From a bacterium (GTDB taxonomy: Bacteria; Patescibacteriota; Minisyncoccia; Phycocordibacterales; GCA-002787175), in assembly GCA_030699905.1 (NCBI GenBank), contig JAUYKQ010000027.1, positions 1,293 through 65,292 of the forward strand: a stretch of 64,000 nt of DNA, read 5' to 3'. Numbering within the stretch: the stretch's first letter is position 1; every line of letters starts with the position of its first letter. The translations under genes were made by a program, and so were the position numbers. The notes beneath the pieces were generated by a model, which did not search any database, was not told where the DNA came from, and saw only the letters and a program-made list of their open reading frames with translations. Positions 1 through 44,896 of this stretch are shown piece by piece.

Positions 1-195
1 CCGTAAACATCACAGACCCGTATCTCAAAGCCGACGCGTTTATCGTAATCGCCAGAGAGATTAACACTCGGTTAAAGCGGTAACGGTAAAAACAAAAAGT
101 TTTACATTTACACAACCCCGGAGTTTTGCACTCGGGGTTTTTTGTTGCATTTAGGAAAAAAGGAGTACCGCCTCTTGGGCGGGGAGGGCTTTTTT

Positions 196-352
196 CTCCC
201 TTTCGTAAAGGGTTAGGGAATTTTCAATTTTCAATCAAATCCCGAAATTTTCAATGCATCAAATTCGTAAGCAGTGTTCGCCCCTCCTTGCTTTCTTGTT
301 TAAAAATTGATTCATTGAAAATTGATTGAAAATTGCAAAATTGAAAATTCTC
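196..352. mobile_element. MITE-like element, family D copy 1. About 155 bp, bounded by ~30 bp terminal inverted repeats (GAGAATTTTCAATTTTGCAATTTTCAATCAA ... TTGATTGAAAATTGCAAAATTGAAAATTCTC). The left repeat is shortened in this copy.
   Basis: Near-identical second copy at 17209-17384. The terminal inverted repeats are read directly. No coding capacity; the ORF-track entry 126..329 is an artefact of the repeat. Confidence 0.7.
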
Positions 353-357
353 TTTTT

Positions 358-417
358 CCTAAATCCTAAATCCTAAATCCTAAATCCTAAATCCTAAATC
401 CTAAATCCTAAATCCTA
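358..417. repeat. Tandem heptamer microsatellite (CCTAAAT), about 8.5 units
   Basis: Direct read: cctaaatcctaaatcc..., lying between family D copy 1 and the zupT stop. The same AATCCTA/TAAATCC motif recurs at 30811-30826 and 51338-51350. Confidence 0.9.
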
Positions 418-3402: not shown

Positions 3403-5358
3403 CTAATATAGAGGGTTGGCAAAGAGTTCCTCCAGCTCTTTTATATTGATAAATTCTTGAGGGGCTTTTATGTCAAGAGGTTGATTTATGTCAAAAAAAG
3501 AGTAGCGGGAGTCCAAAAAATATTGTTTGTTTTTAAGGCGGGCCGAATCGGAAATCGGAATCATTCGTGTCTGGTATCTGACTTGCGCGGGGAATCCGTC
3601 CTTGGTAAACCAGATGGCAAATTCGTTGTTTTCCTGCATGTGGTTGAAAAATGATTCAAACAATTCGCTCTCCAGAATCGCCGTAACTTTGGGGTCAGGT
3701 TCCCAATCTGCCTCCGCCCCTTCTTGGCCGTAAAGTTTTGGTGAAATCTCTTTTACTACGCGAGTGTAGACGGGTAGTATTTTTTCCCTATCCATTCCCA
3801 AAACGTATTTGTAAGCCGTCTTGCCACCAACTTTTTCTTTTTTGGCATTTCCTTTGACAAAGAAAAGTCCTTCGTCATTTACTATTTTCATGACCTCGGT
3901 GAAAGCAATCGCCATGTTATCGGGAGATGCTTCTTCCTCTTCTCCTTGTTCATACGCTCCAAAGTCGGATAATGGAAGAAAAGTATTTTCAACGTCGTCT
4001 TTTGAAATTTTAACCCATTTGCCTTTTATGAGACCCGGGTCAAAATAGGCGGAGATAAAGGGTAAACTTGGGAATTTATTTATGCGAACGTATAAAATTT
4101 CGTCAACTAACCGAAGGTCAAAATCAATCATGTAAGAAGAGTCACCGAATCCGGCGTCAACACCCACGTTGAATTCAGTGTTTGGTTTTATGTCCGACTG
4201 ATTTTCCGCCTGTTTTTCAAAATTGACGGCGCCGGAAAGAGCTCCCTCTAAAGAAAGTTCGCTTGGCATGGACAAAAACAGACGGTCTCTTGACTGAAGA
4301 AAGTCCACAACAGGGGGTGCCGGGGGAGAGCCGGTAAACTGATAGAAATAGAAATACGGTTGATTCTCGTCAAAAGTTAGGGTTTTCCCGGAAATTTGAG
4401 CGGACTTGGGTCCTGTGTTTGCGCTTATGCTGTAGGGAAGGCGTTTCTCAATTTCCCAAATGGCTTCGTCCGTTTCAAATTCAACGGAAAGTGTGTACCC
4501 CTGCCTGTCGCTGTCCACTATATATACGAAAGAATCGTCAATAAGGTTCTTGTTTTCGAAAAAAACATCTTTATTATTTTTATTGTAGCTTAATGTTTGC
4601 GAGTCGTTAAAGTATTCATCCAATGTTTTAGGATATCTGTTTTTGTTGTCGCCGGGATAAAAGCGCAGGTTATTCAAGGCCTCCAAAACATCCATTCTCT
4701 GCCTGTCTCTTTCAAACATCGGTCGTCTCGCTTCAACTTCCGAGTCATCGTAAGTGAAGGGACGAGCATTTGGTTCTCTATCCATTGAATAAAAAGAAAC
4801 GGCCAGCTCATAGCGGGCTGTATCCATATCGGCAAATTTGGCTATGCCTTTAGTCAGTATTTCCGAGCTGTTTTTGTATGGCGCTCCGCCAAAAAACCAC
4901 AGATTGTTTACATAGGCGTAAGCCGCTCCTCCCGTGAGCATCACTATCGCGGCTATGATAATGCTCATCATAACCCCGTGTTTTCTTGGCGAGGCGGGAG
5001 CAGAAGATGAAAGAACTTCACTTTTTGGCGAAATTTCAGAATCGGCATTTTGGAATGCGGAAGTTTCTTGGGTAGGGGGCAGCCACGGGTTTAGGGCGGG
5101 TTTGACTTTTTCTTTTGAGCCGTGATAGGAGTTTTGATATGATCCGTTCGGATAGTCGTTTAAAGATTTGTAACTGCTTTCCCGCGCTTTTATTTCCGGA
5201 GGAGGCATGGGGGACGTATGCGACGTATCCTGAAAGGCCTCGTTTATATCCGAATCGCTCCACGCCTGTTTTTTGAGCTCGTCTCTGATTTGGCTGTCAC
5301 TCATTCCATAATCGCGCGCTTCAATAATATATTTACGGACTTGCGAATCTGTTGCCAT
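3403..5358 (-). CDS. Hypothetical large membrane-anchored protein: short cytoplasmic N-terminus, low-complexity Ser/Pro linker, one TM helix, and an extracytoplasmic domain of about 500 aa
   Basis: Long ORF. TM segment VMMSIIIAAIVMLTGGAAYAYV. No recognisable catalytic motif. Confidence 0.6.
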   Translation of the reverse strand: MATDSQVRKYIIEARDYGMSDSQIRDELKKQAWSDSDINEAFQDTSHTSPMPPPEIKARESSYKSLNDYPNGSYQNSYHGSKEKVKPALNPWLPPTQETSAFQNADSEISPKSEVLSSSAPASPRKHGVMMSIIIAAIVMLTGGAAYAYVNNLWFFGGAPYKNSSEILTKGIAKFADMDTARYELAVSFYSMDREPNARPFTYDDSEVEARRPMFERDRQRMDVLEALNNLRFYPGDNKNRYPKTLDEYFNDSQTLSYNKNNKDVFFENKNLIDDSFVYIVDSDRQGYTLSVEFETDEAIWEIEKRLPYSISANTGPKSAQISGKTLTFDENQPYFYFYQFTGSPPAPPVVDFLQSRDRLFLSMPSELSLEGALSGAVNFEKQAENQSDIKPNTEFNVGVDAGFGDSSYMIDFDLRLVDEILYVRINKFPSLPFISAYFDPGLIKGKWVKISKDDVENTFLPLSDFGAYEQGEEEEASPDNMAIAFTEVMKIVNDEGLFFVKGNAKKEKVGGKTAYKYVLGMDREKILPVYTRVVKEISPKLYGQEGAEADWEPDPKVTAILESELFESFFNHMQENNEFAIWFTKDGFPAQVRYQTRMIPISDSARLKNKQYFLDSRYSFFDINQPLDIKAPQEFINIKELEELFANPLY

Positions 5359-12852: not shown

Positions 12853-13707
12853 TCAGATGCTCCGGTTTAAATTTGTCATAAAGTCCTGAAAGTTGGTTTC
12901 TTTTTTTCCTTCCGGTACGACACGAAGGATTTTCAAAGTGTTATCCAGCCACTTGGCCGAAGTGATTTTAACTCTTATTCTTTTGTCGCTTTTCATTACA
13001 AAAAAGAACGCGGGCGCGGAACCTGCGTGTGCTTGAATTTTAAGGAAATTTTTGCGTGAGTCGGCGTTTAAGTCAATTTCCGCGTTTTCTTTTTCAAGTT
13101 TCTTTGTGTAAGTGGCTCTCAAGTCATCTTGAGGAGACGGTTTCAAATGGCCGTTTAAATAATCTGGCAAAATTTCAACAAGCAGTTTCGCTCCTTCTTT
13201 AGCCAGTTCCGCTTCCAATTCAGGCGCCGCCGGCCACTCTTTGACGGTGTGCTTTTTTTCCGCTAAAATCGGTCCGGTATCAACCCCCTGTTCCATGAGC
13301 ATGATCGTCACTCCGGTATTTTTATCATCATTCAAAATAGCGCCGGAAACCGGTGAGGGACCTCTGTATTTTGGCAAAAGAGAGGGGTGAATGTTTAAGG
13401 CGCCGTATTTCGGGATTTCTAAAAGTTTTTCTCTTAAAATTTTCCCGAACGAAGCCACAATAAACAATTGACAGCCGGAAGATGACAAATGATTTTCCAA
13501 AGAGGCGTCCATCTTGTTCGGTTGGATGTATGAAATGCCGTTCTTCTCGGCCCAAACTTTCACCGGTGGCGGTGAAAGTTTCAGATGTCTGCCTTTGGGC
13601 CTATCTGGCGCTGTAACTATAATTACGGGCAGAAGGCCCGCTGTTTTCAGCTCTTCAAGCGCGGTTGTGGAAAAGTTGTCGGTACCGAAAAAAACAAAGG
13701 AAATCAT
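12853..13707 (-). CDS. fmt: Methionyl-tRNA formyltransferase
   Basis: N-terminal FFGTDNFS. Formyltransferase core ALNIHPSLLPKYRGPSP. Adjacent to def. Confidence 0.9.
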   Translation of the reverse strand: MISFVFFGTDNFSTTALEELKTAGLLPVIIVTAPDRPKGRHLKLSPPPVKVWAEKNGISYIQPNKMDASLENHLSSSGCQLFIVASFGKILREKLLEIPKYGALNIHPSLLPKYRGPSPVSGAILNDDKNTGVTIMLMEQGVDTGPILAEKKHTVKEWPAAPELEAELAKEGAKLLVEILPDYLNGHLKPSPQDDLRATYTKKLEKENAEIDLNADSRKNFLKIQAHAGSAPAFFFVMKSDKRIRVKITSAKWLDNTLKILRVVPEGKKETNFQDFMTNLNRSI

Positions 13708-13785
13708 ATTCGCAATAAATATTCGTTATGTTTTATAAGGAGAAACAGGAGGTTTTCGGGCTAAGGATTGGATATGGCATAAACG

Positions 13786-14343
13786 TCAATATGTTTTTAA
13801 ATTTCTTTCAGGAGGCATTTCTCTAATGTCCGTGGCGCTGTCAATGAAAAGTTTTCCTTCCAAATGGTCCATTTCGTGCTGAAATATTTCAGCCACAAGT
13901 CCGGACGCTCCTCGCGTAAATTTTTTGCCGTCTTCGTCGTATGCTTCTACTGTGGTTTTTTTTGAGCGTTTTATTCTGCCGTATGCCCAACGTACGGAAA
14001 GACATCCCTCTTCCATAAAATGGGTTTCTTTGGAAATTTTGACAATACGCGGATTTATGAAAACCAAGTTTCCGGTTTTTACTGTTTTGGATTTTCGCAG
14101 TTCTTCTCTTCTTTGATGTATATCTTCGGACAGGTCAAAGGCCTTTTCAGAAATTATAAAAATGCGAAGCGATACCCCTATTTGCGGAGCGGCAAGTCCC
14201 ACCCCGTCCTCCTCGGCATCCAAAACTTCTTTCATCTTTTTTATCGTTTCCTTGATGCGCGGTTTTGTTATATCCGAAACGGGTATTTCTTTCGCCACTT
14301 GCCTTAATACCGGATTATCTCTGTCCACGATTTTAACGGCCAT
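13786..14343 (-). CDS. def: Peptide deformylase
   Basis: GLAAPQIG, EGCLSV and HEMDHLEG motifs. The start is probably MAVKIV (14343) rather than the upstream ATG. Confidence 0.9.
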   Translation of the reverse strand: MAVKIVDRDNPVLRQVAKEIPVSDITKPRIKETIKKMKEVLDAEEDGVGLAAPQIGVSLRIFIISEKAFDLSEDIHQRREELRKSKTVKTGNLVFINPRIVKISKETHFMEEGCLSVRWAYGRIKRSKKTTVEAYDEDGKKFTRGASGLVAEIFQHEMDHLEGKLFIDSATDIREMPPERNLKTY

Positions 14344-14436
14344 AAAGTAATTATACCTCAAAATTCAGACGTTTAAAAGTTCCTTGATTATTGACTTCAA
14401 CTGTTTTTTAGGGTAGTGTTTTTTTAGGAGAACATT

Positions 14437-15183
14437 ATGATGAAAGATAGAAAAATTGTACAAAGAAATGAACAGCAAAACGGCCATCGCGTGAATGTGA
14501 ATAAAAACGGACGAGCAAAGCAGAAAATTATAGTTGCCGAACCTTTTTTAATTACCGCTCTATGTCTGGCAAAATTGGTGGAGGACGAGTTTGGGTACGA
14601 GACGGTAGTGCTGACAAATTCATCTGAAATAATTCACGCGGTTAGGGAGTCAAGTCCGAAACTTTTGATCACCGAGTTCATGTTCATGTTTGGGGAAAAA
14701 GGGGGTATAGGAATGGCGGCATTACTCGGTACGCTAAAGGCGGAATTTCCAAAACTTCCTTCCCTTGTCCTGTCTTCCGCGCCGGAGAGAATCTTCGCTT
14801 TGCGATGTTTAGAGTGGGGCGCCAAAGGTTATCTCCACAAGAGCGTTTCCAAGGAAACGCTCTTTGAGGGAATAGGAGCCGTTCTTGCCGGCAATAGTTT
14901 TGTGAGTAAAACTGTTAACACCCTTTTGCTCCAAAGCATTGGAGCGGGCTCTAAAGATAATCTGGTTGCAAAATTGTCTCCCAGAGAGGCAGAAGTTCTG
15001 GCTTCTGTCAGTCAATGTCTCAGTCCGGCTCAAATCGCGGAGAGTTTGTCTCTGTCGGTGAAAACCGTGGAGTGCTACTTGGGGAATATTAAAATGAAGC
15101 TCGGCTTTAAAAATGCCGGAGAACTAAGAAAGTTCGCTGGGTTCTTTGTGAATTCGGGGCAAAATTCTGGGCAAGTCGACTGA
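14437..15183 (+). CDS. LuxR/NarL-family transcriptional regulator with an atypical receiver domain
   Basis: C-terminal helix-turn-helix (LSPREAEVLASVSQCLSPAQIAESLSLSVKTVECYLGNIKMKLG). Receiver-like N-terminus in which the expected phospho-acceptor Asp position reads LLITEFMF (Glu) and the acidic pair reads AEP. Confidence 0.7.
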   Translation: MMKDRKIVQRNEQQNGHRVNVNKNGRAKQKIIVAEPFLITALCLAKLVEDEFGYETVVLTNSSEIIHAVRESSPKLLITEFMFMFGEKGGIGMAALLGTLKAEFPKLPSLVLSSAPERIFALRCLEWGAKGYLHKSVSKETLFEGIGAVLAGNSFVSKTVNTLLLQSIGAGSKDNLVAKLSPREAEVLASVSQCLSPAQIAESLSLSVKTVECYLGNIKMKLGFKNAGELRKFAGFFVNSGQNSGQVD

Positions 15184-15232: not shown

Positions 15233-17158
15233 TCATAAAAGCGTTTCGGGGTCTACGTTTATGGAAAATGCCGGCGGTAGAGAAAGCAGTTTCCGTGAAA
15301 GTTCTTCGTCAATCCAGTTCTTTTTCGGTATTTTTACAAGCGCGTGCATTGTGTATGCTTTGGCTTCTTCGCCCTGATTCCATGCCGGAAAAGACACGGC
15401 ATCCCATTTGTTCAAAAGTTTTTCCGCTTCTTTTATTTGCGAAACAACCGCGTCTTTTTTTCCGGAAAGCGATATTTTGATAAGCGTGGAAAAAGGAGGA
15501 TAACCGAATTCTTCTCTTTCTTTTATCTCCTCTTTATAAAAGTCAAGAAGGTTACCGGAAAGACCCTGTTCCAAAACCGGTTGAATTCCCATGCGTGTCT
15601 GCAAAATAAATTTTTTGGTTGGAATCTCTCGCACTCTCAAAAGCAAATGCAGGACTCTTTCGTTGGTGCGGAAATCAGGCAGAGAAAAGAGAGAATCAAA
15701 AGAAGCTATGGCGGCGTTAGCGAGCGAATGTGAACGCAGATAAGGCAAAGCTTTCTCGGTGCCCAAAAGCACGCTTCCGGGTGAGGATGTGAAGTTTTTA
15801 AGTATCTCCTGTGACTTTTTAACTGTGTTAGCCGTGTCGCTGTCAAACCGAAAAACTTTTATTTCAGGAATCTGTTCATTTATTTCTTCGGCTACTCTTT
15901 CTATGCCAACTCCGAGTGGCACCAGTTTCCAAGAGCCACAGTATCCGCATTTTTCCGCAGTTCCTCTTTTTTCTCCGCATTTGTGGCAAATGAAAACACT
16001 TCTTCCTCCCGCTGATTGTTTGTGAAGCACTAAAGGCGTTTGGCACGAAAGGCAGGTAACAAGAGTGCCGCAGTCGCCACAGGAAGTAGTGGAAGAATGT
16101 CCTCGTCTGGAAGTGAATATGAAAGTGTTTTCGCTTTCGTCCTTGCCTTTTCGGATTAATTCAACGAGGTCTTCGCTTAGGACTCTAAATTCTTTGTTTT
16201 TTTCCTTTTGCAAGCTTCTCATGTCCACGACCTGTTGTGCTGAAGTGGTCAGGAAACGAAATTTGAGAGGGGCTATTTCAGGCAGTTCGTGGTCCCTGTA
16301 TCTGGCTATCGTTTCTGTTCTCAATATCGTATCGCCCAAAACCAGCCGTTTATTTCCGGTTTTGCACAAAAGTTCGGCAAAGGTTCTAATGTCTATAAAC
16401 GGCCTTGTCTGCATTTTAAAACTTCGCGAACTTTCTTTCTCAACTATCACGGTGCTTATGTCTCGGCGAGGCAGGCACAAAAAAGCGCCGGTCCCTATTA
16501 TAAGGGAAGAATGTGGCTCCTCTAAGGACGCTCTCCATGCTGATTTAAGCTCTTTTGCCGATAAGTCGCTATGTAAAATGAAAGTATATTTTTCTATGCC
16601 TCGTGGAATATGATCCGCCACTTCTTTGACGTCTTCTATGGTGGGAAGACATAAAAATACAGAGGCGTCTTTGGCAAACTCTTCTCTTATTAAACTTTTG
16701 TAATGGGCGTATCTTTCTTCTCGTTCGCTTTGCAAGACGAATATTTCGTGAGCTCTTTCCGAAGCGACGGACTTCAAGGTTTCAGTTTCCTTCCTTAGCG
16801 GTTTCTCGTTTTTTTTGAGGGAAATTTCTTCAAAAAAAACTTTTGGAAGTATCGCGGACAAAACAGAGCCGGTCGTGGCGACAAAATATTCGGCGGCTTT
16901 TTGGGCGGTTTCCAAAAAGTTTTTGTCCATTATGTTGTCTTTGATTTTTCTCTCCACTTTTTTCATTTTGAAAGAACTGTCTTTTATGGACTGTTTTGCT
17001 TCCGCCACGCTTTCCGTTTCAAAGACCATGGCCGGCGCCATTTTGCCTCTTATAGGCACCTCAACAAGAGTTCCAGGCGTCAAATTTAAAGAGCTCCAGT
17101 AAGAGAGCTTTTCTTTTCCTATGCCGGAAGCTATTGGAATAACGTGGACGAGATTCAT
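15233..17158 (-). CDS. priA: Primosomal protein N' (PriA)-like, with degenerate ATPase motifs
   Basis: N-terminal 3'-DNA-binding-like region and an intact Cys4-type zinc-binding region (CGDCGTLVTCLSCQTPLVLH...ICHKCG...CGYCGS). At the helicase motif I/II positions the sequence reads QSEREERYAHY (no GSGKT) and VIVEKESSRSFK (no DEEH). Confidence 0.6.
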   Translation of the reverse strand: MNLVHVIPIASGIGKEKLSYWSSLNLTPGTLVEVPIRGKMAPAMVFETESVAEAKQSIKDSSFKMKKVERKIKDNIMDKNFLETAQKAAEYFVATTGSVLSAILPKVFFEEISLKKNEKPLRKETETLKSVASERAHEIFVLQSEREERYAHYKSLIREEFAKDASVFLCLPTIEDVKEVADHIPRGIEKYTFILHSDLSAKELKSAWRASLEEPHSSLIIGTGAFLCLPRRDISTVIVEKESSRSFKMQTRPFIDIRTFAELLCKTGNKRLVLGDTILRTETIARYRDHELPEIAPLKFRFLTTSAQQVVDMRSLQKEKNKEFRVLSEDLVELIRKGKDESENTFIFTSRRGHSSTTSCGDCGTLVTCLSCQTPLVLHKQSAGGRSVFICHKCGEKRGTAEKCGYCGSWKLVPLGVGIERVAEEINEQIPEIKVFRFDSDTANTVKKSQEILKNFTSSPGSVLLGTEKALPYLRSHSLANAAIASFDSLFSLPDFRTNERVLHLLLRVREIPTKKFILQTRMGIQPVLEQGLSGNLLDFYKEEIKEREEFGYPPFSTLIKISLSGKKDAVVSQIKEAEKLLNKWDAVSFPAWNQGEEAKAYTMHALVKIPKKNWIDEELSRKLLSLPPAFSINVDPETLL

Positions 17159-17208
17159 TGTTTTGACATATTTTAATTAGGAACTACGCGTTTGGTCTGA
17201 ATTGTATT

Positions 17209-17384
17209 CTCCCTTTTGTAAAGGGGGAGAGAATTTTCAATTTTGCAATTTTCAATTTTCAATCAAATCCCGAAATTTTCAATGCATCAAATTCGTAGTC
17301 AATGTTCGTCCCGCTTTGCTTGTTTCTTTGTTTGAAAATTGATTCATTGAAAATTGATTGAAAATTGCAAAATTGAAAATTCTC
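17209..17384. mobile_element. MITE-like element, family D copy 2, with full ~30 bp terminal inverted repeats
   Basis: Near-identical to 196-352. The ORF-track entry 17279..17488 is an artefact. Confidence 0.75.
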
Positions 17385-17497
17385 TTATCAATGTCCTCGT
17401 GTGACGCAGGGGCGGTGTATTCATACGATATAATCCCATAAATTTGGTAAAATTTCAATTTTTGAAAAAGCTCCGATATAGCGTACAATGTGCCTAC

Positions 17498-18787: not shown

Positions 18788-18842
18788 ATTCACATAATTT
18801 CTAATCCGACGCCCTTTGCGATCGGGGTTAGAAATTTTAGAA

Positions 18843-19856
18843 ATGTCTTTCTTTTCCACAAAACTGGGCATTGACTTGGGTACCGCGAACACTTTGGTGT
18901 TTGTCCCCGGCAAAGGGGTTGTTTTAAACGAGCCGTCCGTTGTCGCTGTTTCCGAGCAGGATAACAAAATACTGGCTGTCGGCCTTGAAGCCAAAAACAT
19001 GATAGGCAAAACACCCGAGAGTATTATCGCTTATCGTCCCATGAAGGACGGCGTTATTGCCGACTACAGAGTAACGGAAGCGATGCTCCGATATTTTATA
19101 GACAAGGCGCTCGGCAAGTGGAACTTCTGGAAGCCGGAGGTCTTGGTATCGGTGCCCGCGGGAGTAACATCCACCGAAAGGCGGGCTGTTGTTGAAGCGA
19201 CCGTTAAAGCGGGGGCCAGGGCGGCATATGTGGTCAAAGAGCCGATTTTGGGAGCCATAGGCGCCGGTATACCCATACAAGAGGCCATGGGGCATATGAT
19301 AGTGGATATTGGAGGGGGAACGACAGACGTAGCCGTTATTTCTCTTGGGGGAATCGTTTCTTCAACGTCTGTGAAATGCGCCGGAAACAGGATTGATACC
19401 GCCATTGCCGACTATATCAAAAAGACATTCAATCTCGGTATCGGGGACAAAATGTCCGAAGACATAAAGATAAAAGTCGGTTCGGCAGTCCCTCTTGAAG
19501 AGGAGCTCACGATGACCATAAAGGGCCGAGATTTTATCACCGGATTGCCTCGTACGACGGAAATAAAGACAAATGAAATAGTCAAAGCTATCGGCAAAGA
19601 GCTTCGTGAAATGATAAAAGCCATTAAAGACGTGTTGCAGGAGACACCGCCGGAATTGGCGGCGGATATCATAGACAGGGGAATAATAATGACAGGGGGC
19701 TCTTCACAGCTTCGTAATTTACCGGAGCTTGTTTATAGGCGTACGGGAGTGAAAGCGGCTTTAGCAAAGGACCCTCTTTACTGCGTAGTAAAGGGAACGG
19801 GCATAGCGCTGGAACATCTGGACACTTATAAAAAGAGCATTATTGCGAAGAGGTGA
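18843..19856 (+). CDS. mreB: Rod shape-determining protein MreB
   Basis: GIDLGTANTLVFV...NEPSVVAV and the actin-fold motifs DIGGGTTDVAVIS. Confidence 0.9.
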   Translation: MSFFSTKLGIDLGTANTLVFVPGKGVVLNEPSVVAVSEQDNKILAVGLEAKNMIGKTPESIIAYRPMKDGVIADYRVTEAMLRYFIDKALGKWNFWKPEVLVSVPAGVTSTERRAVVEATVKAGARAAYVVKEPILGAIGAGIPIQEAMGHMIVDIGGGTTDVAVISLGGIVSSTSVKCAGNRIDTAIADYIKKTFNLGIGDKMSEDIKIKVGSAVPLEEELTMTIKGRDFITGLPRTTEIKTNEIVKAIGKELREMIKAIKDVLQETPPELAADIIDRGIIMTGGSSQLRNLPELVYRRTGVKAALAKDPLYCVVKGTGIALEHLDTYKKSIIAKR

Positions 19857-23570: not shown

Positions 23571-25175
23571 CTACTTTTCTACGAGATATGTGGCGGTGAC
23601 GAAAGCCACTTTGCCCTGCAGAGGGCTGTTCGCAAGGTATCGCCCTGCTATTGCCCCGACTTCCTCACGAAAGCGGACATGGTCCGCTGTTTTAGGGTTT
23701 TGGTCGAGGTAGTTTTTCCTCACCAACACCCACGCCGCCTCTGCAATGTGGGCGCCGATGAGGACAACTTCGCCCTCAAATACGTCGTTTGCCCGAAGGG
23801 GCCGGAGCGCAACTTTTATTTGGATGTTGAATTTGTTTCCAAATAACGTTCTTCCTCCCCGTTCGTAAGGGCACTCGTACGTTATGGCCTTCGCAAGGTT
23901 CGTACTTAAGTAAGAGGGGTTGATTGCAACCCCTCTTACGGCCTCGCTGGTTATTCGTAATGCTCCCAACCTTTCCAACTTTTTCAAGTTGTCGTCTTGA
24001 GGGATGTCACTTACTGCTGTATGCGGTATGGACGCCGTCTGCTTTTTCATCTCCTGACCCCATTTGACGACGAATGCGTCAATTGTGAGGTTAATTTCGG
24101 CTAACCTTGCGTTCACCCTATCGTCCTGATCCCTGAGCTTTTCACCAACCTCCCCTATGATATCTTCCTTTAATAAGCTAAGGGCGTTTGGGGTGACGGC
24201 CGGCCGGTTTTCCATATCAGAAATCCGACTAGATAACTTGGCTATTTCACCCGAAAGCTGATTGCTTGAGGCAACCAGCTTTTCCTCGGTTTGGATCATG
24301 AGGCGGTCCTGGAATGTTTTCAGCTCTTCCGACCATTCTTTGACATTTTCGTTATGCAGGCGGGATATGGTGTTAACCATTGCCGACTCTACTTTGTCCA
24401 CGAACCCTTCCACCCGATTAGTGGCGCCGTCGCTTACCACGGTGAAGCCATGCAAGCTGTTGCTGATGGCCGTTTGCATTTCCGCGTGAGTTACGGCGTT
24501 TGACCTTATGAGACCGAGTGTCTCATTCAGGGTGTTTAGGGTCTGCCCGATCTCGCTTACCTTGCCCACCACTCCCGGGCTTTCTGTTCCGGGTCGTCCG
24601 AAGACGACATTGGACATGTCCGACATCCTGTTTCGCACCGGAGTTGACACGACGGTGATGACGACGCCGATGAAGACGGCGATGAGCGCCAGGAGTAGCA
24701 ACACCTTTCCAATAAGTTTTGCTTTCTCTTGCCATGACGACTGCTCGCCCCCGAACACCCTGTGCAACTTAGGCGAGGTCGGCTTAGGCAAGGTCTGTGG
24801 TCTTGCCGGTGTGTCTTCTTGTTGGCCTTTTGGAGGAGCCGGTTTTCCACTTTCAACATCTACGACCCAATTTCGGGGAGCCGCCGCAGGACCTCCTTCG
24901 CCTCCACTTTTCGGTGGTGGTGAGGACGTCTCAGTTTTCACACTTTCTCCCGACGGGGGAGAAGTTTGCGCGGGACTCGGAGTCGGAGCCGGCTTCTGCG
25001 GTTGTTTAGCTCCTTCTTTGGGAGTTACCACCGGAGTCGGCTTTTGCGGAGGAGGTTCCTCTTTCTTCGGAGTCGGAGCCGTAGTCGGTTTGGGGCTACC
25101 TCCTTTAGGATTCGCCGGTTTATTGGACGGTTTTTGGCCGCCTTGGCTTAAGTTAATCTCAATCTTGTCTGCCAT
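23571..25175 (-). CDS. Hypothetical membrane-anchored protein: about 140 aa Pro/Lys-rich low-complexity N-terminus, one TM helix, and a coiled-coil extracytoplasmic domain
   Basis: Long ORF. Pro-rich tail (PKPTTAPTPKKEEPPPQKPTPVV...). TM segment VLLLLALIAVFIGVVITVV. Confidence 0.55.
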   Translation of the reverse strand: MADKIEINLSQGGQKPSNKPANPKGGSPKPTTAPTPKKEEPPPQKPTPVVTPKEGAKQPQKPAPTPSPAQTSPPSGESVKTETSSPPPKSGGEGGPAAAPRNWVVDVESGKPAPPKGQQEDTPARPQTLPKPTSPKLHRVFGGEQSSWQEKAKLIGKVLLLLALIAVFIGVVITVVSTPVRNRMSDMSNVVFGRPGTESPGVVGKVSEIGQTLNTLNETLGLIRSNAVTHAEMQTAISNSLHGFTVVSDGATNRVEGFVDKVESAMVNTISRLHNENVKEWSEELKTFQDRLMIQTEEKLVASSNQLSGEIAKLSSRISDMENRPAVTPNALSLLKEDIIGEVGEKLRDQDDRVNARLAEINLTIDAFVVKWGQEMKKQTASIPHTAVSDIPQDDNLKKLERLGALRITSEAVRGVAINPSYLSTNLAKAITYECPYERGGRTLFGNKFNIQIKVALRPLRANDVFEGEVVLIGAHIAEAAWVLVRKNYLDQNPKTADHVRFREEVGAIAGRYLANSPLQGKVAFVTATYLVEK

Positions 25176-26795: not shown

Positions 26796-27860
26796 ATGTT
26801 TGAACAATTCAAATCATATTTTAATAAATACGCTTCCAACGATATCGGTATAGACCTTGGTACCGCCAATACTTTGGTTTATGTCCGAGGACAGGGCATT
26901 GTCGTAAACGAACCATCGGTTGTTGCCGTTAATCAGAAGACCGGCCAAGTGGTGGCTGTTGGTTCGCAAGCCAAAGACATGCTCGGGCGAACGCCCGGAC
27001 ACATCGTTGCCATAAAACCTCTTGTCGGAGGGGTGATTTCCGATTTTGAAGTTACGGAAGAAATGATAGCGTACCTTTTAAAAAGAGTGGAAGGCGACTC
27101 GCGCAGGATCTTGGGGCCGAGGGTGGTCATCGGTGTTCCTTCGGGTGTCACTAACGTGGAGTCCCGAGCAGTCAGAGACGCTACCAAAAACAACGGCGCT
27201 CGCGAAGTATATGTGGTGGAAGAGCCGATGGCGGCGGCCATAGGAATACGACTGCCTGTTATGGATCCCGTCGGCAGTATGATAGTTGACATAGGAGGAG
27301 GGACGACAGACGTGGCGGTTATTTCTCTTGCTGGGGTCGTGCGTTCAAAAAGTTTGAAAATAGCTGGCGACAAGTTGAACGAGGATATCATCTCCTATAT
27401 ACGAGGCGAGTTTAAAATTCTAATCGGCGAAAAGACGGCGGAGAACGTTAAAATAGCCATTGGCTCCGTGTTGCCTCAAGAGGCGCCGATGGAAGCGGTC
27501 ATAAAAGGTCGCGACCTTATCACCGGCTTGCCGAGAGAAGTCATAATTACCGACTCGGATATCAGAGAAGCCATTTGCGGTTCGGTGGATATTTTGGTGG
27601 AAGCGGTGAAAGAGGTCTTGGAAACAACTCCTCCTGAAATAGTATCGGATATAATGCATAGGGGAGCATATCTTGTCGGAGGCGGGGCTTTGCTTCGCGG
27701 TGTTGATGTTTTGTTTGCCGACTCAACAAAAGTACCTTTCCATATCGCGGACGACCCTCTGTCGGCTGTTGGTCGCGGGGCGGGCATAATCCTTGAGGAC
27801 TTGAGCAAATATGAAGAGGTGCTCATAAAAAGCGAAGATGAACTACCTCCTAAAAACTAA
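26796..27860 (+). CDS. mreB: MreB paralog (Mbl-like)
   Basis: GIDLGTANTLVYV...NEPSVVAV and DIGGGTTDVAVIS. It lies immediately upstream of mreC. Confidence 0.9.
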   Translation: MFEQFKSYFNKYASNDIGIDLGTANTLVYVRGQGIVVNEPSVVAVNQKTGQVVAVGSQAKDMLGRTPGHIVAIKPLVGGVISDFEVTEEMIAYLLKRVEGDSRRILGPRVVIGVPSGVTNVESRAVRDATKNNGAREVYVVEEPMAAAIGIRLPVMDPVGSMIVDIGGGTTDVAVISLAGVVRSKSLKIAGDKLNEDIISYIRGEFKILIGEKTAENVKIAIGSVLPQEAPMEAVIKGRDLITGLPREVIITDSDIREAICGSVDILVEAVKEVLETTPPEIVSDIMHRGAYLVGGGALLRGVDVLFADSTKVPFHIADDPLSAVGRGAGIILEDLSKYEEVLIKSEDELPPKN

Positions 27861-28638
27861 CAAAAACACGAGGCGAAGGTTTTTTCCTATTTTAGTCGTT
27901 TTGTTATTTCTGACAGTTGTATTTACTCTCAATTTTCTGGCGCCTCGTTTTTTGGGAGGACGTTTTCACTTTGTGGCCTTTCCGTTTTGGAAAGCCGGGC
28001 AAACGGTCAGCGGGTGGTTTGTGAACAGTTCGGTCTTGTTTAAGGAAAAATCGGAACTGCTGAAAGAGTTGGAAAATCTGCGAGAAAAAGAGTCAGACAA
28101 GGAAAACCTGCTTCTGCTTTTGGAGGTATACAGAAAAGAAAATGAAGAATTGAGAGGTATTTCTGAAGTTAGAGTTGATGAAAAAGTCATTTTAGCTTCT
28201 GTTCTTTCCGCTCCGCCCATATCTCCTTACGACACTTTGATTTTGGGCGCCGGCTTAAAAAGCGGTGTTTCAGAAGGAATGATTGTCACTATGAACCGTG
28301 CCGTCATCGGTAGAGTGGTTTCGGCGAATGACCATACTTCTACCGCTTTGCTTTTTTCCGCGCCGGACGAAAGAACCGAAGTAGTGGTGGGAGAAAGTAA
28401 AATACAAGCGGCGGCGGTGGGTGTAGGTGGCGGAAACATGACCATAACTTTGCCTAAGGGCGTGAAAATTGCCGAAGGCGACGTCGTCATGCTTTCCGGT
28501 AATTTTTCCCCTCGGCTTGTGGGAGTGGTGGAGGCGCTGTCTTCAAGCGATGCGGACTCTTTTCAAACGGCGCTTTTGAGGGTCCCTGTCAACTTTGCCG
28601 AAGCAAGGTTTGTTGAAATAACCGATATGTTGCCTTGA
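27838..28638 (+). CDS. mreC: Rod shape-determining protein MreC
   Basis: N-terminal TM, coiled coil (LKELENLREKE...ENEELRG), then a beta-rich domain. Position is between mreB and the mreD-like gene and pbp2. Confidence 0.75.
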   Translation: MNYLLKTNKNTRRRFFPILVVLLFLTVVFTLNFLAPRFLGGRFHFVAFPFWKAGQTVSGWFVNSSVLFKEKSELLKELENLREKESDKENLLLLLEVYRKENEELRGISEVRVDEKVILASVLSAPPISPYDTLILGAGLKSGVSEGMIVTMNRAVIGRVVSANDHTSTALLFSAPDERTEVVVGESKIQAAAVGVGGGNMTITLPKGVKIAEGDVVMLSGNFSPRLVGVVEALSSSDADSFQTALLRVPVNFAEARFVEITDMLP

Positions 28639-29069: not shown

Positions 29070-30776
29070 ATGATTTTTTTTAGACGAAAAAATAAAATTT
29101 CAGGCAAAACAGAAATATTTCCTGACGAAATATTTTTGGACTCCAGCAACATTCCAAAATTTGACAAACATCAGTTTGAAGGAAGGATAGAAAAGCCGAT
29201 TTCTAAAAAAGTCATCGCCATTTCCGGCGTGGTTTTTGTGGCGGTGGCTGTCATATTTTTAGGTAAAATCTGGATGCTTCAGGTGGGACAGGGACGCGCC
29301 TATGCTTTGCGGGCGGAAGAAAACCGCCTCCGCCACACGATAGTTTTTAGCGAGAGGGGAGTGATTTTTGACAGAAAAGGGACAGTCGTGGCTTACAACG
29401 AGCCGCCGCTTCCCGGAAACGAATTTTCATATAGAAAATATACTGACTTGCCGGGGTTGGCGCATGTTTTGGGGTATGTGAAATATCCGTCCAAAGACAG
29501 CGCCGGTTTTTACTACAAAGAGGATTTTGATGGGGTGGCCGGGGTGGAAAAAATGTTTGACGATGCTCTGTCGGGGACTAACGGATTGAGGATTATAGAG
29601 ACAAATGCTTTAGGCGCCGTGGCTTCCGAAAGTGTAATTTCCTCCGCCAAAGACGGTGAAAATATTCATCTGTCTATTGACGCGGGACTTCAAACCGCTT
29701 TGCATTCATACATGCGCGACTTGACCAGAGACGGAGGATATGCGGGAGGAGCGGCTGTTGTTTTGAACGTGAAAACTGGTGAAATACTGGCCATGACGAA
29801 CGTGCCTGAATTTGACTCCACGGTTCTTGCCGACGGAAAGGATGCCGAAAAAATAAAATCATTCGTGGAGGACCCCAACATGCCTTTTTTGAATCGGGTG
29901 GCGCAGGGCCTTTATACTCCGGGTTCCATAGTAAAACCGTTTGTTGCTTTAGCCGCCTTGTCCGAAGGCGTAATTGATCCGCGCAAAAATATCTTGAGCA
30001 CCGGTTCCATATCCATAGCTAACCCCTATGACAAAACTCAGGTGAGTGTTTTTAAGGATTGGAAAGCCCATGGCTACGTGGACATGAGGGAAGCGTTAGC
30101 TGTGTCGTCAAACGTTTATTTTTACGCCATAAGCGGAGGATACGAAGACCAAAAAGGAGTAGGTATTGATAAAATTTCCGAATACGTCAGAAAGTTCGGT
30201 TTTGGTGAACCTGTGGAAAAAAATCACTGGCTTTTTGGTAAAGAGGGGGTTGTGCCGACTCCGGAGTGGAAAAAGTCCGTTTTTGGAGGCGACGAGTGGC
30301 GTTTGGGGGATACTTACAACACTTCTATCGGCCAGTACGGTTTTCAGGCGACACCACTGCAAATAGCGAGGGCTATCGCGGCTATTGCAAACGAAGGCAC
30401 GCTGGTTTATCCGACTTTCACTAAAAATACTTACGAAACCCAAGACGCGATCGGAAAAAAAATAGAAATCAAAAGCGACTATTTTGACATAGTTAAGGAG
30501 GGGATGAGAGATGCCGTGGTGGCCGACTATGGTACTGCCCGTTCTTTGAATTTTCCGTTTGTATCGGTGGCCGCCAAAACAGGAACGGCCGAAGTCGGCA
30601 CTACAAAGAAGAGTGTGCATTCTTGGGTGGCGGGTTTTTTCCCTTACGAGGAACCTCAATACTCTTTTGTTGTCGTTATGGAAAGAGGCCCCAGCGAAAA
30701 CATATTACCGGCAAGTCGCGTTATGCGCGGAATGTTTGAGTGGATGGGAATATATAGGCAAGAGTACCTAAAATAA
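29070..30776 (+). CDS. mrdA: Penicillin-binding protein 2 (elongasome transpeptidase)
   Basis: SxxK (GSIVKP), SxN (SSN) and KTGTA motifs. N-terminal TM. Context is mreBCD. Confidence 0.85.
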   Translation: MIFFRRKNKISGKTEIFPDEIFLDSSNIPKFDKHQFEGRIEKPISKKVIAISGVVFVAVAVIFLGKIWMLQVGQGRAYALRAEENRLRHTIVFSERGVIFDRKGTVVAYNEPPLPGNEFSYRKYTDLPGLAHVLGYVKYPSKDSAGFYYKEDFDGVAGVEKMFDDALSGTNGLRIIETNALGAVASESVISSAKDGENIHLSIDAGLQTALHSYMRDLTRDGGYAGGAAVVLNVKTGEILAMTNVPEFDSTVLADGKDAEKIKSFVEDPNMPFLNRVAQGLYTPGSIVKPFVALAALSEGVIDPRKNILSTGSISIANPYDKTQVSVFKDWKAHGYVDMREALAVSSNVYFYAISGGYEDQKGVGIDKISEYVRKFGFGEPVEKNHWLFGKEGVVPTPEWKKSVFGGDEWRLGDTYNTSIGQYGFQATPLQIARAIAAIANEGTLVYPTFTKNTYETQDAIGKKIEIKSDYFDIVKEGMRDAVVADYGTARSLNFPFVSVAAKTGTAEVGTTKKSVHSWVAGFFPYEEPQYSFVVVMERGPSENILPASRVMRGMFEWMGIYRQEYLK

Positions 30777-40056: not shown

Positions 40057-40578
40057 ATGAGGAAAGTTTTGAACGGAAGTTTTTACAACAGACCGGTTTT
40101 GACGGTAGCCGAAGAACTTTTAGGAAAATATTTGGTCAGACAAAGCGCCGGTAAACGCCTCGCTTTCCTTATAACCGAAGTGGAAGGGTACGACGGAGAA
40201 AAAGACCTTGCCTGTCACGCGAGGAGAGGCAAGACAAAAAGAACGGCCGTGATGTATGGCGAAGCGGGACATTGGTATGTTTATCTTTGTTACGGAATGT
40301 ATTGGATGTTAAACATCGTCACCGGACCGGTCGGCTATCCGGCGGCGGTTTTAATACGAGGAGTTTCGAGCCATGGCGGGCCGGGAAAACTAACCAGAGA
40401 ATTGAAAATTGGAAAAAGCTTTAACTCAAAAAAGGCAGCGCCGGAAAAGGGGCTTTGGATAGAAGACAGGGGAGTTCGCGTAATGCCGGAAAAAATTTTG
40501 AAAACCGCGAGGGTAGGCATTTCTTATGCCGGACCCCTATGGTCAAAGAAAAAATGGAGGTTTGTATTGAAAATGTAA
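40057..40578 (+). CDS. mpg: DNA-3-methyladenine glycosylase (MPG/AAG family)
   Basis: PVLTVAEELLGKYLV...ITEVEGYDGEKDLACHARRGKT...VMYGEAGHWYVYLCYGMYWMLNIVTGP matches the AAG family throughout. Confidence 0.85.
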   Translation: MRKVLNGSFYNRPVLTVAEELLGKYLVRQSAGKRLAFLITEVEGYDGEKDLACHARRGKTKRTAVMYGEAGHWYVYLCYGMYWMLNIVTGPVGYPAAVLIRGVSSHGGPGKLTRELKIGKSFNSKKAAPEKGLWIEDRGVRVMPEKILKTARVGISYAGPLWSKKKWRFVLKM

Positions 40579-41675: not shown

Positions 41676-42392
41676 ATGAAATCAGTATTTCTTTCTAACT
41701 TTTTTGAAAAGCGTAAAACCGTGGAGACGCTTATAGATGAAAGCAGAGTTGATGCCGGTTATTACTTATTCCTCTTTTTTTCAACTTTTATAGTGGCCTT
41801 GGGACTTATTTTCGGCAATGCCGTTATAATAATGGCTGGAATGCTTATCGCTCCCATTTTATCGCCTATTTTGTCTTTGGGAATGGGAATAGCCACCACA
41901 AGCAGACGCGCCATAGTACGTTCTGTCATTATTCTTATAAGAACCGCCGTTCTTATAACAGGAATATCTTTTGTCGTGGCATTTCTTACCGGCCAACGAG
42001 GAATAACGGATGAAATGATATTAGCTTCCAGTCCCGACATTTGGCTGTTCCTCGTGGCTTTTTTTTCAGGAATAGTGGCGGCATATTCTTGGATAAAACA
42101 GAACACTTCCGTGACTCTGCCTTCAATAGCATTGTCCATTTCCATCATCGTGCCTCTTTCGGCAGTCGGCATAGTTTTGGGGTCTTTGCCAATGTTGCAT
42201 GAAGTTCTATTCGGTGCCACTGTTCTTTTCGCTATCAACCTTTTATGGGTGGTCGTTGCGAGCACTATTGTTTTTGTTCTTTTCGGTTTTTCTAATCTTC
42301 AACAATGGCAGGAAAAGAAAATAGAGGACGAAAAGAATATTTTGGCTGAAATAAAGAAAGATAAGGAAGAGGCAAAAAATGCAATAACATGA
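41676..42392 (+). CDS. DUF389-like hydrophobic membrane protein
   Basis: Repeated GxxxG-rich TM helices (MAGMLIAPILSPILSLGMGIA). Confidence 0.5.
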   Translation: MKSVFLSNFFEKRKTVETLIDESRVDAGYYLFLFFSTFIVALGLIFGNAVIIMAGMLIAPILSPILSLGMGIATTSRRAIVRSVIILIRTAVLITGISFVVAFLTGQRGITDEMILASSPDIWLFLVAFFSGIVAAYSWIKQNTSVTLPSIALSISIIVPLSAVGIVLGSLPMLHEVLFGATVLFAINLLWVVVASTIVFVLFGFSNLQQWQEKKIEDEKNILAEIKKDKEEAKNAIT

Positions 42393-43486
42393 CAACCACC
42401 GCTACAATAACGAGCATACTCGTCATAATCCTCGCCGTAAACATTTTAGCGGTGGTTTTGTTGTGGAGAAAAAAAGGTGGGCCTAGCGGTGATGACAAAG
42501 CTTTTTCGCTGATGCTTGCCCAGCTAAACGAGATATCGCGCGTAGTGGACCATAAAATGGGAGAGACGAACCGTTTTGTAAACGAATCAATGCGAACTCA
42601 GTTTTCCGAATCCAAACGGCTGATAAACGAGATAAATGAACAAGTCGGCCGCAACCTTTTAGACGTTACCAAGGGGCTTACGAAATTGGACGAGACAAAC
42701 AAACAAGTCGTCTCTTTCGCTGACCAGCTGCAGTCCCTTCAAGATATTTTGAAAAATCCAAAACAGCGCGGGATTTTGGGCGAATATTATCTTGAGACGC
42801 TTCTTAAAAACACTTTGCCTCCTGGCAGTTTTGAAATGCAGTACCACTTGACGGCAGAAACCATAGTTGACGCGGCCGTTTTCGTGAAGGACAAAATAAT
42901 TCCAGTGGATTCAAAGTTTTCTCTTGAAAATTACAACCGACTTACGGAGGCGAGGGACCCATCGGAAAAGGAACGCCTTGAAAAACTTTTTGTCCAAGAT
43001 TTAAAGTTGAGAATACAAGAAACCGCCAAGTATATACAGCCGGAAAACCGCACTACCGACTTCGCTTTTATGTTCATACCCCATGAGGCCATTTACTATG
43101 ATTTGCTGGTCAATAAAGTGGGGTCCGTAAAAGGCGAAGAAGACGAAAATTTGATACAACGGGCGGCGGGAAAATATAAAGTCATAATAGTGTCGCCAAC
43201 GTCATTTCTGGCCTATCTGCAGACGGTTCTTCAGGGTTTGCGCGCCCTGCAGATAGAGGAGACGGCTAAAGACATTGTCAAAAGAGTGGGGGAGCTCGGC
43301 AAACATTTGAAAAGTTTTGAGGATTATCACGGTAAAATGGGCAATGCTTTGACGACTGTCGTGAACCACTACAATTCATCCGGCAAAGAATTTAAGAAAA
43401 TAGACAAAGATGTTTTGCGTATTACCGGAGAAGCGGTGGGCATAGAGACCCTGACTATAGAGAAGCCGGATAGGGAAGACAGTTGA
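42389..43486 (+). CDS. rmuC: DNA recombination protein RmuC
   Basis: N-terminal TM, long coiled coil, and the RmuC nuclease-like domain (RGILGEYYLETLLKN...FMFIPHEAIYYDL). Confidence 0.75.
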   Translation: MTTTATITSILVIILAVNILAVVLLWRKKGGPSGDDKAFSLMLAQLNEISRVVDHKMGETNRFVNESMRTQFSESKRLINEINEQVGRNLLDVTKGLTKLDETNKQVVSFADQLQSLQDILKNPKQRGILGEYYLETLLKNTLPPGSFEMQYHLTAETIVDAAVFVKDKIIPVDSKFSLENYNRLTEARDPSEKERLEKLFVQDLKLRIQETAKYIQPENRTTDFAFMFIPHEAIYYDLLVNKVGSVKGEEDENLIQRAAGKYKVIIVSPTSFLAYLQTVLQGLRALQIEETAKDIVKRVGELGKHLKSFEDYHGKMGNALTTVVNHYNSSGKEFKKIDKDVLRITGEAVGIETLTIEKPDREDS

Positions 43487-44278: not shown

Positions 44279-44896
44279 CTACTCTCTGTTCTTCAGTGCG
44301 TTCTCCAATGTTTTAGAATCGGCATATTCAAGTTCAGCGCCGGAAGAAAGACCCCTGCCAGGCAGGGTTATTTTTATGCCTGCCTGTTCTGCCATGCTCC
44401 TTATTCTTTCTTTTACGTATTCCGCCGTGTGCTCTCCTTCGGGATTTAAGTTAAATGCCAGAACGACCTCTTTAAGGGTACTGCTTTGCCGACTCATCCT
44501 ATTTATAAGTTCAGATATTCTTATTTTTCTTTCGGGCTCTTTTTCAAGAATAGCCAAAGTGTTGCCCAATACAAAGTAAAAGCCCTTAAAAACGCGCGAT
44601 TTTTCAACGGTTTCCATGTCCACGTCTTTTGCAAGGACCATAAGAGAGCTTTTGTCTCTGGAGTCGTCTCTGCAGACCGGGCAAATTCCTTCATTTCCGT
44701 CACTTAAATAAAAGCCAAAACACTCTCCGCATTGTCGCGATTCTTTTCTCAATGATTCCACCGCGCTTGCAAATTCCGAAATCTCCTCGGTATTTTTAGA
44801 CAAAAGATGATACACAAAACGGCGCGCCTGCCTCGGTCCGATGCCCGGGAAAGATTTAAAAATATCGGTTAGTTTATCTATGGAAGACATTAACAA
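44279..44896 (-). CDS. recR: Recombination protein RecR
   Basis: HhH N-terminus, C4 zinc finger (CGECFGFYLSDGNEGICPVC), and Toprim domain. Confidence 0.9.
   Translation of the reverse strand: MLMSSIDKLTDIFKSFPGIGPRQARRFVYHLLSKNTEEISEFASAVESLRKESRQCGECFGFYLSDGNEGICPVCRDDSRDKSSLMVLAKDVDMETVEKSRVFKGFYFVLGNTLAILEKEPERKIRISELINRMSRQSSTLKEVVLAFNLNPEGEHTAEYVKERIRSMAEQAGIKITLPGRGLSSGAELEYADSKTLENALKNRE

Follow-up and report, generated by a model that had tools for sequence, protein, structure and literature searches.

The minus-strand gene at positions 15233-17158 of a 64,000-nucleotide stretch of contig JAUYKQ010000027.1, from a Patescibacteriota bacterium, encodes an orthologue of the primosomal protein PriA that is probably a natural pseudohelicase; to judge from its sequence, its predicted structure and analogy with the PriA of Deinococcus radiodurans, it would recognize forks and recruit DnaB without unwinding DNA. 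We refer to the whole of this stretch as the window. A preliminary description of the window had reported that both ATPase motifs of the protein are apparently lost. Motifs I and II are indeed gone, but the loss is wider than was claimed. Motifs III, V and VI have gone with them, and so have the Q-motif segment and the winged-helix domain. Moreover, motor-less PriA is a conserved state over a very large clade of Parcubacteria. The gene and the parts of its product are laid out as follows (aa, amino-acid residues).

15233..17158, minus strand: priA orthologue, probable pseudohelicase (open reading frame of 641 aa; TIGR00595, hhalign, Foldseek)
16829..17158, minus strand: 3′ DNA-binding domain (aa 1-110; PF17764, E = 2.3e-8)
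16784..16828, minus strand: linker (aa 111-125) replacing the winged-helix domain and Q-motif segment, with a predicted local distance difference test score (pLDDT) below 50 at residues 115-120
16124..16783, minus strand: RecA-like lobe 1 (aa 126-345), with 19% identity to canonical PriAs the domain that has diverged most
16700..16732, minus strand: pseudo-motif I, QSEREERYAHY (aa 143-153), an acidic loop with no glycine and with Arg-149 in place of the Walker lysine
16415..16450, minus strand: pseudo-motif II, VIVEKESSRSFK (aa 237-248), with DEEH changed to EKES
15569..16123, minus strand: RecA-like lobe 2 (aa 346-530) with the cysteine-rich insertion (HMMER and hhalign)
16100..16108, minus strand: motif IV, RRG (aa 351-353), the arginines that bind single-stranded DNA (ssDNA), with Arg-351 and Arg-352 kept
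15923..16090, minus strand: cysteine-rich two-zinc region (aa 357-412; C360, C363, C369, C372, C391, C394, C404, C407)
15599..15646, minus strand: pseudo-motif VI (aa 505-520), QVAGRAGR replaced, with a 5-residue deletion and without arginine fingers
15233..15568, minus strand: C-terminal domain (aa 531-641) and stop codon (hhalign to residue 637)

Identity and predicted fold of the gene product

The 641-residue product scores 240.1 bits against the general NCBIfam PriA model TIGR00595, for which the cut-off is 230.35, and lies far under the cut-offs of the lineage-specific PRK05580 equivalog models. Its sole Pfam match is the PriA 3′ DNA-binding domain (3′BD; PF17764, E = 2.3e-8). Searching PDB sequences with phmmer returned the PriA proteins of Klebsiella and Escherichia coli (E = 6e-31 to 3e-27 over residues 154-562, the Klebsiella entry 4nl4 at E = 6e-31), and when the protein family was compared by hhalign with nine canonical PriAs, drawn from the five phyla Bacteroidota, Cyanobacteriota, Bacillota, Fusobacteriota, and Pseudomonadota, the probability was 100% and E = 3e-76 over residues 2-637. 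The earlier claim that the protein aligns with PriA across the N-terminal DNA-binding region, the helicase lobes, the zinc region and the C-terminal domain (CTD) therefore stands as regards its full length, although the N-terminal region consists of the 3′BD only, without the winged-helix domain and the LNxEQxxA segment. An AlphaFold2 (AF2) model built on 54 homologues (pLDDT 86.5, predicted template-modelling score 0.86) contains two RecA-like lobes with the PriA-type fold. The nine best Foldseek matches of this model in the PDB are all PriA (template-modelling (TM) score 0.70-0.76, E 3e-40 to 1e-28), and other superfamily 2 helicases, Mfd and DEAD-box proteins, rank after them at E ~1e-10. 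By sequence and, as described below, by position, the product is a PriA orthologue.

An identical public protein (P0001) is annotated as having 616 residues, with a start 25 codons downstream of ours, the difference corresponding to window positions 17084-17158. Because homologues align from residue 1 (MNLVHVIPI in the query against a consensus of MK..VIPI), the 641-residue start is likely the true one, in which case the public call is truncated within the 3′BD.

Register and content of pseudo-motifs I and II

The register of the two ATPase motifs is based on a HMMER alignment to 4nl4, two MAFFT alignments with E. coli PriA, an E-INS-i alignment with the nine canonical PriAs, and hhalign. Both MAFFT runs, the E-INS-i panel, and hhalign place QSEREERYAHY on GVTGSGKTEVY, with E. 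coli Lys-230 on Arg-149, and the HMMER alignment, which starts at residue 154, gives the same register for motif I when extended without gaps. Similarly, the HMMER alignment to 4nl4 and the E-INS-i panel align VIVEKESSRSFK (residues 237-248) on VIVIDEEHDSSYK, so that EKES falls on DEEH. The preliminary description had read motif I as QSEREERYAHY and motif II as lost, and these profile alignments put the motifs in the positions it had given. A register obtained with MAFFT --auto and E. coli PriA as the lone outgroup split the winged-helix region of the E. coli protein and misplaced the N-lobe, and was discarded.

Motif I reads G[VI]TGSGKT in eight of the nine canonical proteins, the Bacteroides copy having GVTSSGKT, and all nine contain DEEH, [ST]ATP, GTQ[MIL]xxKG, and Q[VC/S/T]xGRAGR. 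None of these motifs occurs in the query or its family; the counterparts of the query in the panel alignment are SEREER, EKES, GDTI, GTEKALPY, and, with a gap of five residues, RVREIPTK. A shifted alignment might in principle have concealed an intact GxGK[ST] or DExH elsewhere in the protein, but a regular-expression search of the whole query finds no GK[ST] and no D[ED]x[HDQ], and the observation of motif loss thus stands. The single P-loop look-alike in the query, GIGKE (residues 12-16), lies inside the 3′BD and outside the RecA lobes. When the query and 370 homologues were searched for [AG]x4GK[ST], DExH, and GRxGR, only four stray GK[ST] matches were obtained, all at unrelated, non-conserved spots (in the CTD, in the linker, and where helix alpha-1 ends). 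The pseudo-P-loop itself is acidic, is one residue shorter than a P-loop, ends in Arg-149, and is free of glycine in 229 of 270 family members. In the AF2 model, a strand (residues 139-143) leads through a two-residue non-helical loop into a helix (residues 146-162), so that no loop resembling a P-loop is predicted to be left.

Wider loss of the motor

Motif III has changed from GSAT to GDTI in the query and motif V from GTQMxAKG to GTEKALPY, while the 5-residue deletion in motif VI is present in 151 of 151 sequences. Between the 3′BD and Arg-149, hhalign leaves about 190 canonical residues unmatched, which make up the winged-helix domain and the LNxEQxxA (Q-motif) segment. Where the six-domain architecture of the E. 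coli protein has its winged helix, the model predicts about 15 disordered linker residues of low pLDDT, and the highest TM-score in the Foldseek search belongs to 6dcr, an E. coli construct from which the winged helix had been deleted. The Pfam models DEAD and ResIII match none of 54 family members, as against seven of seven canonical PriAs (DEAD at E 1e-18 to 1e-22), and Helicase_C gives weak matches in seven of the 54.

Retained DNA-contact and zinc modules

The 3′BD is detected with PF17764 in all 54 family members. Its universal tyrosine, Tyr-18 in E. coli, corresponds to Tyr-20 and is kept in 369 of 370 homologues, and E. coli Lys-61 corresponds to Lys-66, with lysine or arginine in 366 of 370. 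In motif IV, E. coli Arg-427 and Arg-428 are represented by Arg-351 (365 of 370) and Arg-352 (arginine or lysine in 365 of 370); in E. coli the motif IV arginines bind ssDNA in the PriA pore, as reported in a 2026 study in Nucleic Acids Research (PMC13594977). The same study describes the roles of His-455 and Glu-492 at the "UP" interface of the cysteine-rich region (CRR), and these residues correspond to His-379 (histidine in 282 and tyrosine in 81 of the 370) and Glu-420. The "DOWN" interface of the CRR has changed, with glycine, serine, alanine or asparagine in place of E. coli His-437, and Arg-522 in place of His-599.

A Cys4+Cys4 CRR is present in lobe 2, and the earlier description of the zinc region as intact is confirmed in that all eight cysteines align to those of the E. 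coli CRR. They are invariant in one family alignment, where they belong to dozens of invariant residues, and are 97-100% conserved in 270 sequences; zinc binding itself is predicted from this pattern. Also common to the family and canonical PriA are the DFR, LQT, and ER..YPPF motifs and a C-terminal VDP. The Pfam model PriA_C detects seven of the 54 members weakly, and the CTD is recognized through the hhalign comparison.

Breadth across Parcubacteria

Searching a 90%-identity protein database gave 676 homologues at E<=1e-10, the best 120 of which are full-length, 43-53% identical to the query, and labelled Patescibacteria, Paceibacterota, Minisyncoccia, or Parcubacteria. An exhaustive search of 50%-identity representatives gave 3591 clusters at E<=1e-30; the best 150 of these are 35-47% identical and, bar a few that are truncated or split, full-length. 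At least 543 genomes labelled Parcubacteria or Paceibacterota carry the gene, counting one genome per GTDB species, and public annotations call the protein primosomal protein N′ of these genomes.

The substitutions seen in the query recur in these orthologues. Among 370 full-length homologues, the Walker lysine position is arginine in 369, Gln-143 is kept in 356, position 148 is glutamate or aspartate in 357, and Glu-242 is kept in 361. Position 2 of motif II is lysine in 180 and arginine in 122 (302 together), the former P-loop positions are occupied by aspartate or glutamate, and there is neither a P-loop at the motif I position nor a GRxGR in any of the 370. The commonest forms of motif II among 270 sequences are DKEN (47) and ERES (42), and DEEH is found at the aligned position in 0 of 270. 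All 78 copies taken from named genomes are without Walker A and GRxGR and contain at least four CxxC. A singleton, P0227, has a DEEH-like motif II one residue off register (ILDEEHSRHYE) and may retain DEEH; its P-loop reads AGDDDR, and both P-loop and motif VI are lost. A few other members have EEEH or DEES at motif II. These cases suggest that motif II decayed later than motifs I and VI, or that it reverted. A database search seeded with P0227 returned solely further Parcubacteria-type pseudohelicases of the same family.

Selection on the rebuilt site

Over the stretch that runs from helicase core to CTD, identity is 40% among canonical PriAs of the five phyla, a similar 37% among members of the family, and 22% between the family and canonical PriA. 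The corresponding values for lobe 1 are 43%, 35%, and 19%; this lobe underwent one sharp divergence and has been conserved since. These figures speak for purifying selection on what is left of the protein. Arg-149, Glu-242, Pro-253, Asp-256, and Arg-258 are each at least 96% conserved. In addition, the net charge of the pseudo-P-loop is about -3 when lysine or arginine occupies position 2 of motif II, and about -1.6 when glutamate does. In 68 nearest-relative contrasts, the acidity of the loop compensates 46 times and opposes seven times (sign test p=2e-8, the contrasts being partly dependent). Position 241 couples most strongly with Asp-176 of motif Ia, this pair ranking sixth among long-range pairs by mutual information. 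Taken from covariation in the sequences, these patterns hint that a network of salt bridges now fills the former nucleotide site.

Gene order and candidate partners

Four further genes in the window bear on the identity and the likely partners of the protein.

13786-14361, minus strand: def, downstream of priA (Pfam)
12853-13707, minus strand: fmt, downstream of priA (Pfam)
44279-44896, minus strand: recR (RecR helix-hairpin-helix, Toprim, and C-terminal domains by Pfam)
44965-46359, minus strand: dnaB, the presumed PriA client (DnaB_C, E=3e-100; DnaB N-terminal domain, 1.4e-32)

On the minus strand the order is priA-def-fmt, with def and fmt spanning 12853..14361. In 80 related loci, def and fmt flank priA in 55-56, and murA, mreB, and holB lie on its opposite side in 51-66. 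Canonical loci are arranged alike, as coaBC-priA-def-fmt-rsmB in Bacillus velezensis and coaBC-priA-def in Monoglobus. A second PriA is found neither within about 6 kb on either side in the 80 related loci nor in the 64-kb window, and the priA-def-fmt position supports orthology rather than paralogy. As previously noted, full-length DnaB and RecR are encoded nearby, about 27-29 kb from priA. Pfam scans of about 60 open reading frames (ORFs) in the window detected DnaB, RecR, a HolB-like protein, RmuC, a DEAD-box RNA helicase, and MPG.

A gene resembling a LuxR/GerE-type response regulator (14437-15183, plus strand), with a receiver domain just under the Pfam cut-off, separates priA from def and is encoded on the other strand. 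A homologue of it is missing from this position in all 80 related loci, and the gene thus looks like a lineage-specific insertion into priA-def-fmt.

Comparison with known PriA proteins

A natural PriA pseudohelicase is a kind of protein already published for Deinococcus-Thermus. PriA from D. radiodurans has a Lys-to-Arg change in Walker A, shows no ATPase or helicase activity, binds DnaB directly, and binds ssDNA and forks with an affinity near that of E. coli PriA (Lopper, Boone & Morrow 2015, PMC4504706); a 2017 review named Deinococcus as the sole exception to conserved PriA helicase activity (PMC5778457). The preliminary description had called the loss of the ATPase motifs a notable reduction even for a streamlined genome. 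The reduction is not specific to this genome, as the 370 homologues and at least 543 genomes show, and with the Deinococcus protein published it is less unprecedented than was implied. The two lineages share degenerate motifs I and II and an arginine at the Walker A lysine, neither has a recognizable PriB or DnaT nearby, and by analogy both proteins would have the same role, binding forks and recruiting DnaB without unwinding. The present family, however, belongs to a different phylum, Patescibacteria/Parcubacteria, and its degeneration appears deeper when compared with the published description of the Deinococcus-Thermus protein, which speaks of poor matches in motifs I and II (PMC4504706). 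In the Parcubacteria family, acidic residues stand at the three glycine positions of the P-loop (SEREE in the query is free of glycine) and the catalytic glutamate is lysine or arginine. Besides the deletion of motif VI and the changes in motifs III and V, the family has neither a winged-helix domain nor a Q-motif segment.

With canonical PriA from E. coli and Klebsiella pneumoniae (4nl4, 6dcr, 6dgd, 8fak) the family shares the order of 3′BD, lobe 1, lobe 2 with CRR, and CTD, together with motif IV RRG, the equivalents of His-455 and Glu-492, DFR, YPPF, and the priA-def-fmt position. It differs in having neither the winged-helix domain nor motifs I, II, III, V, and VI, in an identity of 22% (19% in lobe 1), and in being missed by Pfam DEAD and ResIII. 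The E. coli K230 alleles offer a second comparison. K230R alone abolishes both the ATPase and the helicase of E. coli PriA (PMC5778457; PMC4504706), and priA300 (K230R) and K230A/D abolish ATPase, helicase, and translocase activities while primosome assembly and near-wild-type growth are retained, and priA300 supports restart (PMC5778457). These alleles resemble the family in placing arginine (or another residue) at the Walker lysine, but they are engineered single substitutions in an intact, PriB/DnaT-dependent motor, whereas in the Parcubacteria family evolution has remade the entire site, and the window shows no sign of PriB or DnaT.

The literature that we searched, in which coverage is incomplete, contains no description of a PriA with degenerate Walker motifs in Patescibacteria, Parcubacteria or the candidate phyla radiation. 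The family would represent a second and far larger pseudohelicase lineage, found in at least 543 Parcubacteria genomes at species level and in every one of the best 150 clusters at 50% identity. Its scale and thoroughness would be notable to a specialist in replication restart without changing the paradigm. Because the motor has been removed more thoroughly here while the fork-recognition and zinc modules remain under selection, the family strengthens the view that the essential job of PriA is structure-specific loading of the replisome, to which unwinding is accessory. As a natural minimal PriA, with no winged helix, a probably absent ATPase, and no PriB or DnaT in the window, the protein could be useful for dissecting DnaB recruitment. 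The automated label "replication restart helicase PriA" probably misstates the activity in this clade.

Proposed mechanism and alternative explanations

With the ATPase site gone and the zinc region, 3′BD, CTD, and motif IV kept, the role of loader or scaffold that the preliminary description proposed for an ATPase-dead PriA is a reasonable one, and we infer that the protein has no ATPase activity while still binding forks and recruiting DnaB. In such a mechanism the two RecA-like lobes would survive as a structural chassis in which the nucleotide site has been dismantled, the catalytic glutamate of motif II having been replaced by lysine or arginine, the arginine fingers of motif VI deleted, and motifs III and V altered. 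The protein would still recognize abandoned forks and D-loops, its 3′BD binding the 3′ end of the nascent leading strand and motif IV and the zinc-bound CRR forming a pore for ssDNA. It would then be a platform, independent of nucleotide, for bringing DnaB onto lagging-strand ssDNA either directly or by way of an adaptor. A nascent lagging strand would not be unwound. The probable targets are forks that already expose lagging-strand ssDNA, and any remodelling may be carried out by another helicase.

Several considerations weigh against this proposal. The loss of ATPase activity is deduced from sequence and a predicted model, and Arg-149 with the retained Glu-240 and Glu-242 could in principle bind phosphate or nucleotide without hydrolysis. 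Outside the visible 64 kb there may be another PriA whose motor works, or a helicase that compensates, and Pfam scans of about 60 window ORFs detect no PriB, DnaT, DnaD, DciA, DnaC/I, or RecG. Finally, a rebuilt site so strongly conserved must have some function, which the conservation does not specify.

We think it unlikely that the protein has left replication restart for another task, such as the zinc-dependent binding of branched DNA in recombination or some other DNA transaction, and keeps its PriA-like architecture only as a relic. Such a change of role would agree with a lobe 1 just 19% identical to canonical PriAs, with the altered CRR-DOWN residues and the loss of the winged-helix domain, and with window Pfam scans that place no known primosome partner nearby. 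Nevertheless, the gene occupies the ancestral priA-def-fmt position with no second PriA within about 6 kb in 80 loci, the features of the fork-loading role (the 3′-end pocket tyrosine, the motif IV arginines, the CRR-UP interface, and the CTD motifs) are kept, and the Deinococcus precedent retains fork and DnaB binding.

It is rather improbable that the site binds nucleotide in a non-canonical manner or hydrolyses it slowly, with Arg-149 serving for the Walker lysine, Glu-240 and Glu-242 for Walker B, and ATP as a conformational switch. In favour of such a switch, Arg-149 is essentially invariant, Glu-242 and an acidic residue (glutamate or aspartate) at position 240 are kept, and the site is strongly constrained rather than drifting. 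The loop, however, has no glycine in 229 of 270 sequences, is one residue shorter than a P-loop, and is turned into helix by AF2, and its net charge of about -3 should repel phosphate. The arginine fingers of motif VI, the Q/K/G of motif V, motif III, and the Q-motif segment are all missing as well, the single change K230R is enough to kill the ATPase of E. coli PriA, and generic ATPase-lobe models fail in 54 of 54 members.

Still less likely is that the protein is a degenerate paralogue and that these genomes carry a canonical PriA with helicase activity at another site. Our view is limited to 64 kb here and about 6 kb on each side in relatives, which leaves room for such a copy; yet the gene lies at the ancestral priA locus, public annotation calls it primosomal protein N′, and no second copy is seen in the window or the 80 loci. 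Decay of the gene, or a functionless product of misassembly or frameshift, might account for the loss of every catalytic motif, but this is effectively refuted by lineage-wide conservation. The ORF of 641 residues is intact, and there are full-length homologues (35-53% identity) in at least 543 species-level genomes, 3591 clusters at 50% identity that score E<=1e-30, dozens of invariant residues including the eight cysteines, and a confident predicted fold.

None of these alternatives fits the data as well as the reading of the protein as a pseudohelicase. We tentatively raise a bolder version of that reading, which is possible but on balance doubtful. In this version the ATP site would have been rebuilt as a conserved salt-bridge latch, consisting of the acidic pseudo-P-loop, Arg-149, lysine or arginine at the catalytic-glutamate position, and Asp-176, that fixes both RecA lobes in one conformation and makes PriA a constitutive, nucleotide-independent clamp encircling ssDNA and a platform for DnaB loading. 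This form would have an origin separate from that of the Deinococcus-Thermus protein, the Lys-to-Arg change being convergent, and would be ancestral to the radiation of thousands of Parcubacteria species. If so, a sizeable share of bacterial diversity restarts replication without any PriA motor.

Other features of the window

The window contains two full-length MreB paralogues (18816-19856 and 26796-27860, both plus strand; Pfam E ~1e-133 each) and, in the same 12 kb, MreC and a PBP2-type transpeptidase (27838-28638 and 29070-30776). One mreB directly adjoins murA/priA, and the order priA-murA-mreB-holB is kept in most related loci. Other genes concerned with DNA transactions encode RmuC (42389-43486, plus strand), a methylpurine-DNA glycosylase (40057-40578, plus strand), a small protein with an Ada-type zinc-binding domain (52021-52461, minus strand), and an RNase T/DnaQ-like exonuclease (57373-57969, plus strand). 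Three long ORFs on the minus strand have no Pfam match at E<=0.001, namely 3403-5358 (651 aa), 23571-25175 (534 aa), and 54993-56207 (404 aa); the first adjoins two genes with N-terminal methylation motifs like those of type IV pilins. Elsewhere in public sequences, canonical priA is annotated on Pseudomonas plasmids (CP075756.1, 88060-89307, and 14 others of about 50-205 kb, most from P. aeruginosa and of 160-205 kb) and on Acaryochloris plasmids, these being plasmid-borne copies of the restart helicase.

The intergenic region between priA and murA (window 17207-17390) holds a repeat of about 156 bp that resembles a miniature inverted-repeat transposable element (MITE) and lies in the divergent priA/murA promoter region. 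Its terminal inverted repeats, GAGAATTTTCAATTTTGCAATTTTCAAT, are perfect over 28 bp (17229-17256 and 17357-17384), and a GC hairpin at 17207-17231 precedes it. The element has a folding energy of -42.7 kcal/mol (z=-9). For the octamer TTGAAAAT the count is 33, where 10.8 would be expected. Another copy of the element, with about 90% identity, is located near the left end of the window (193-375), beside genes for a ZIP transporter and a Fur-family protein.

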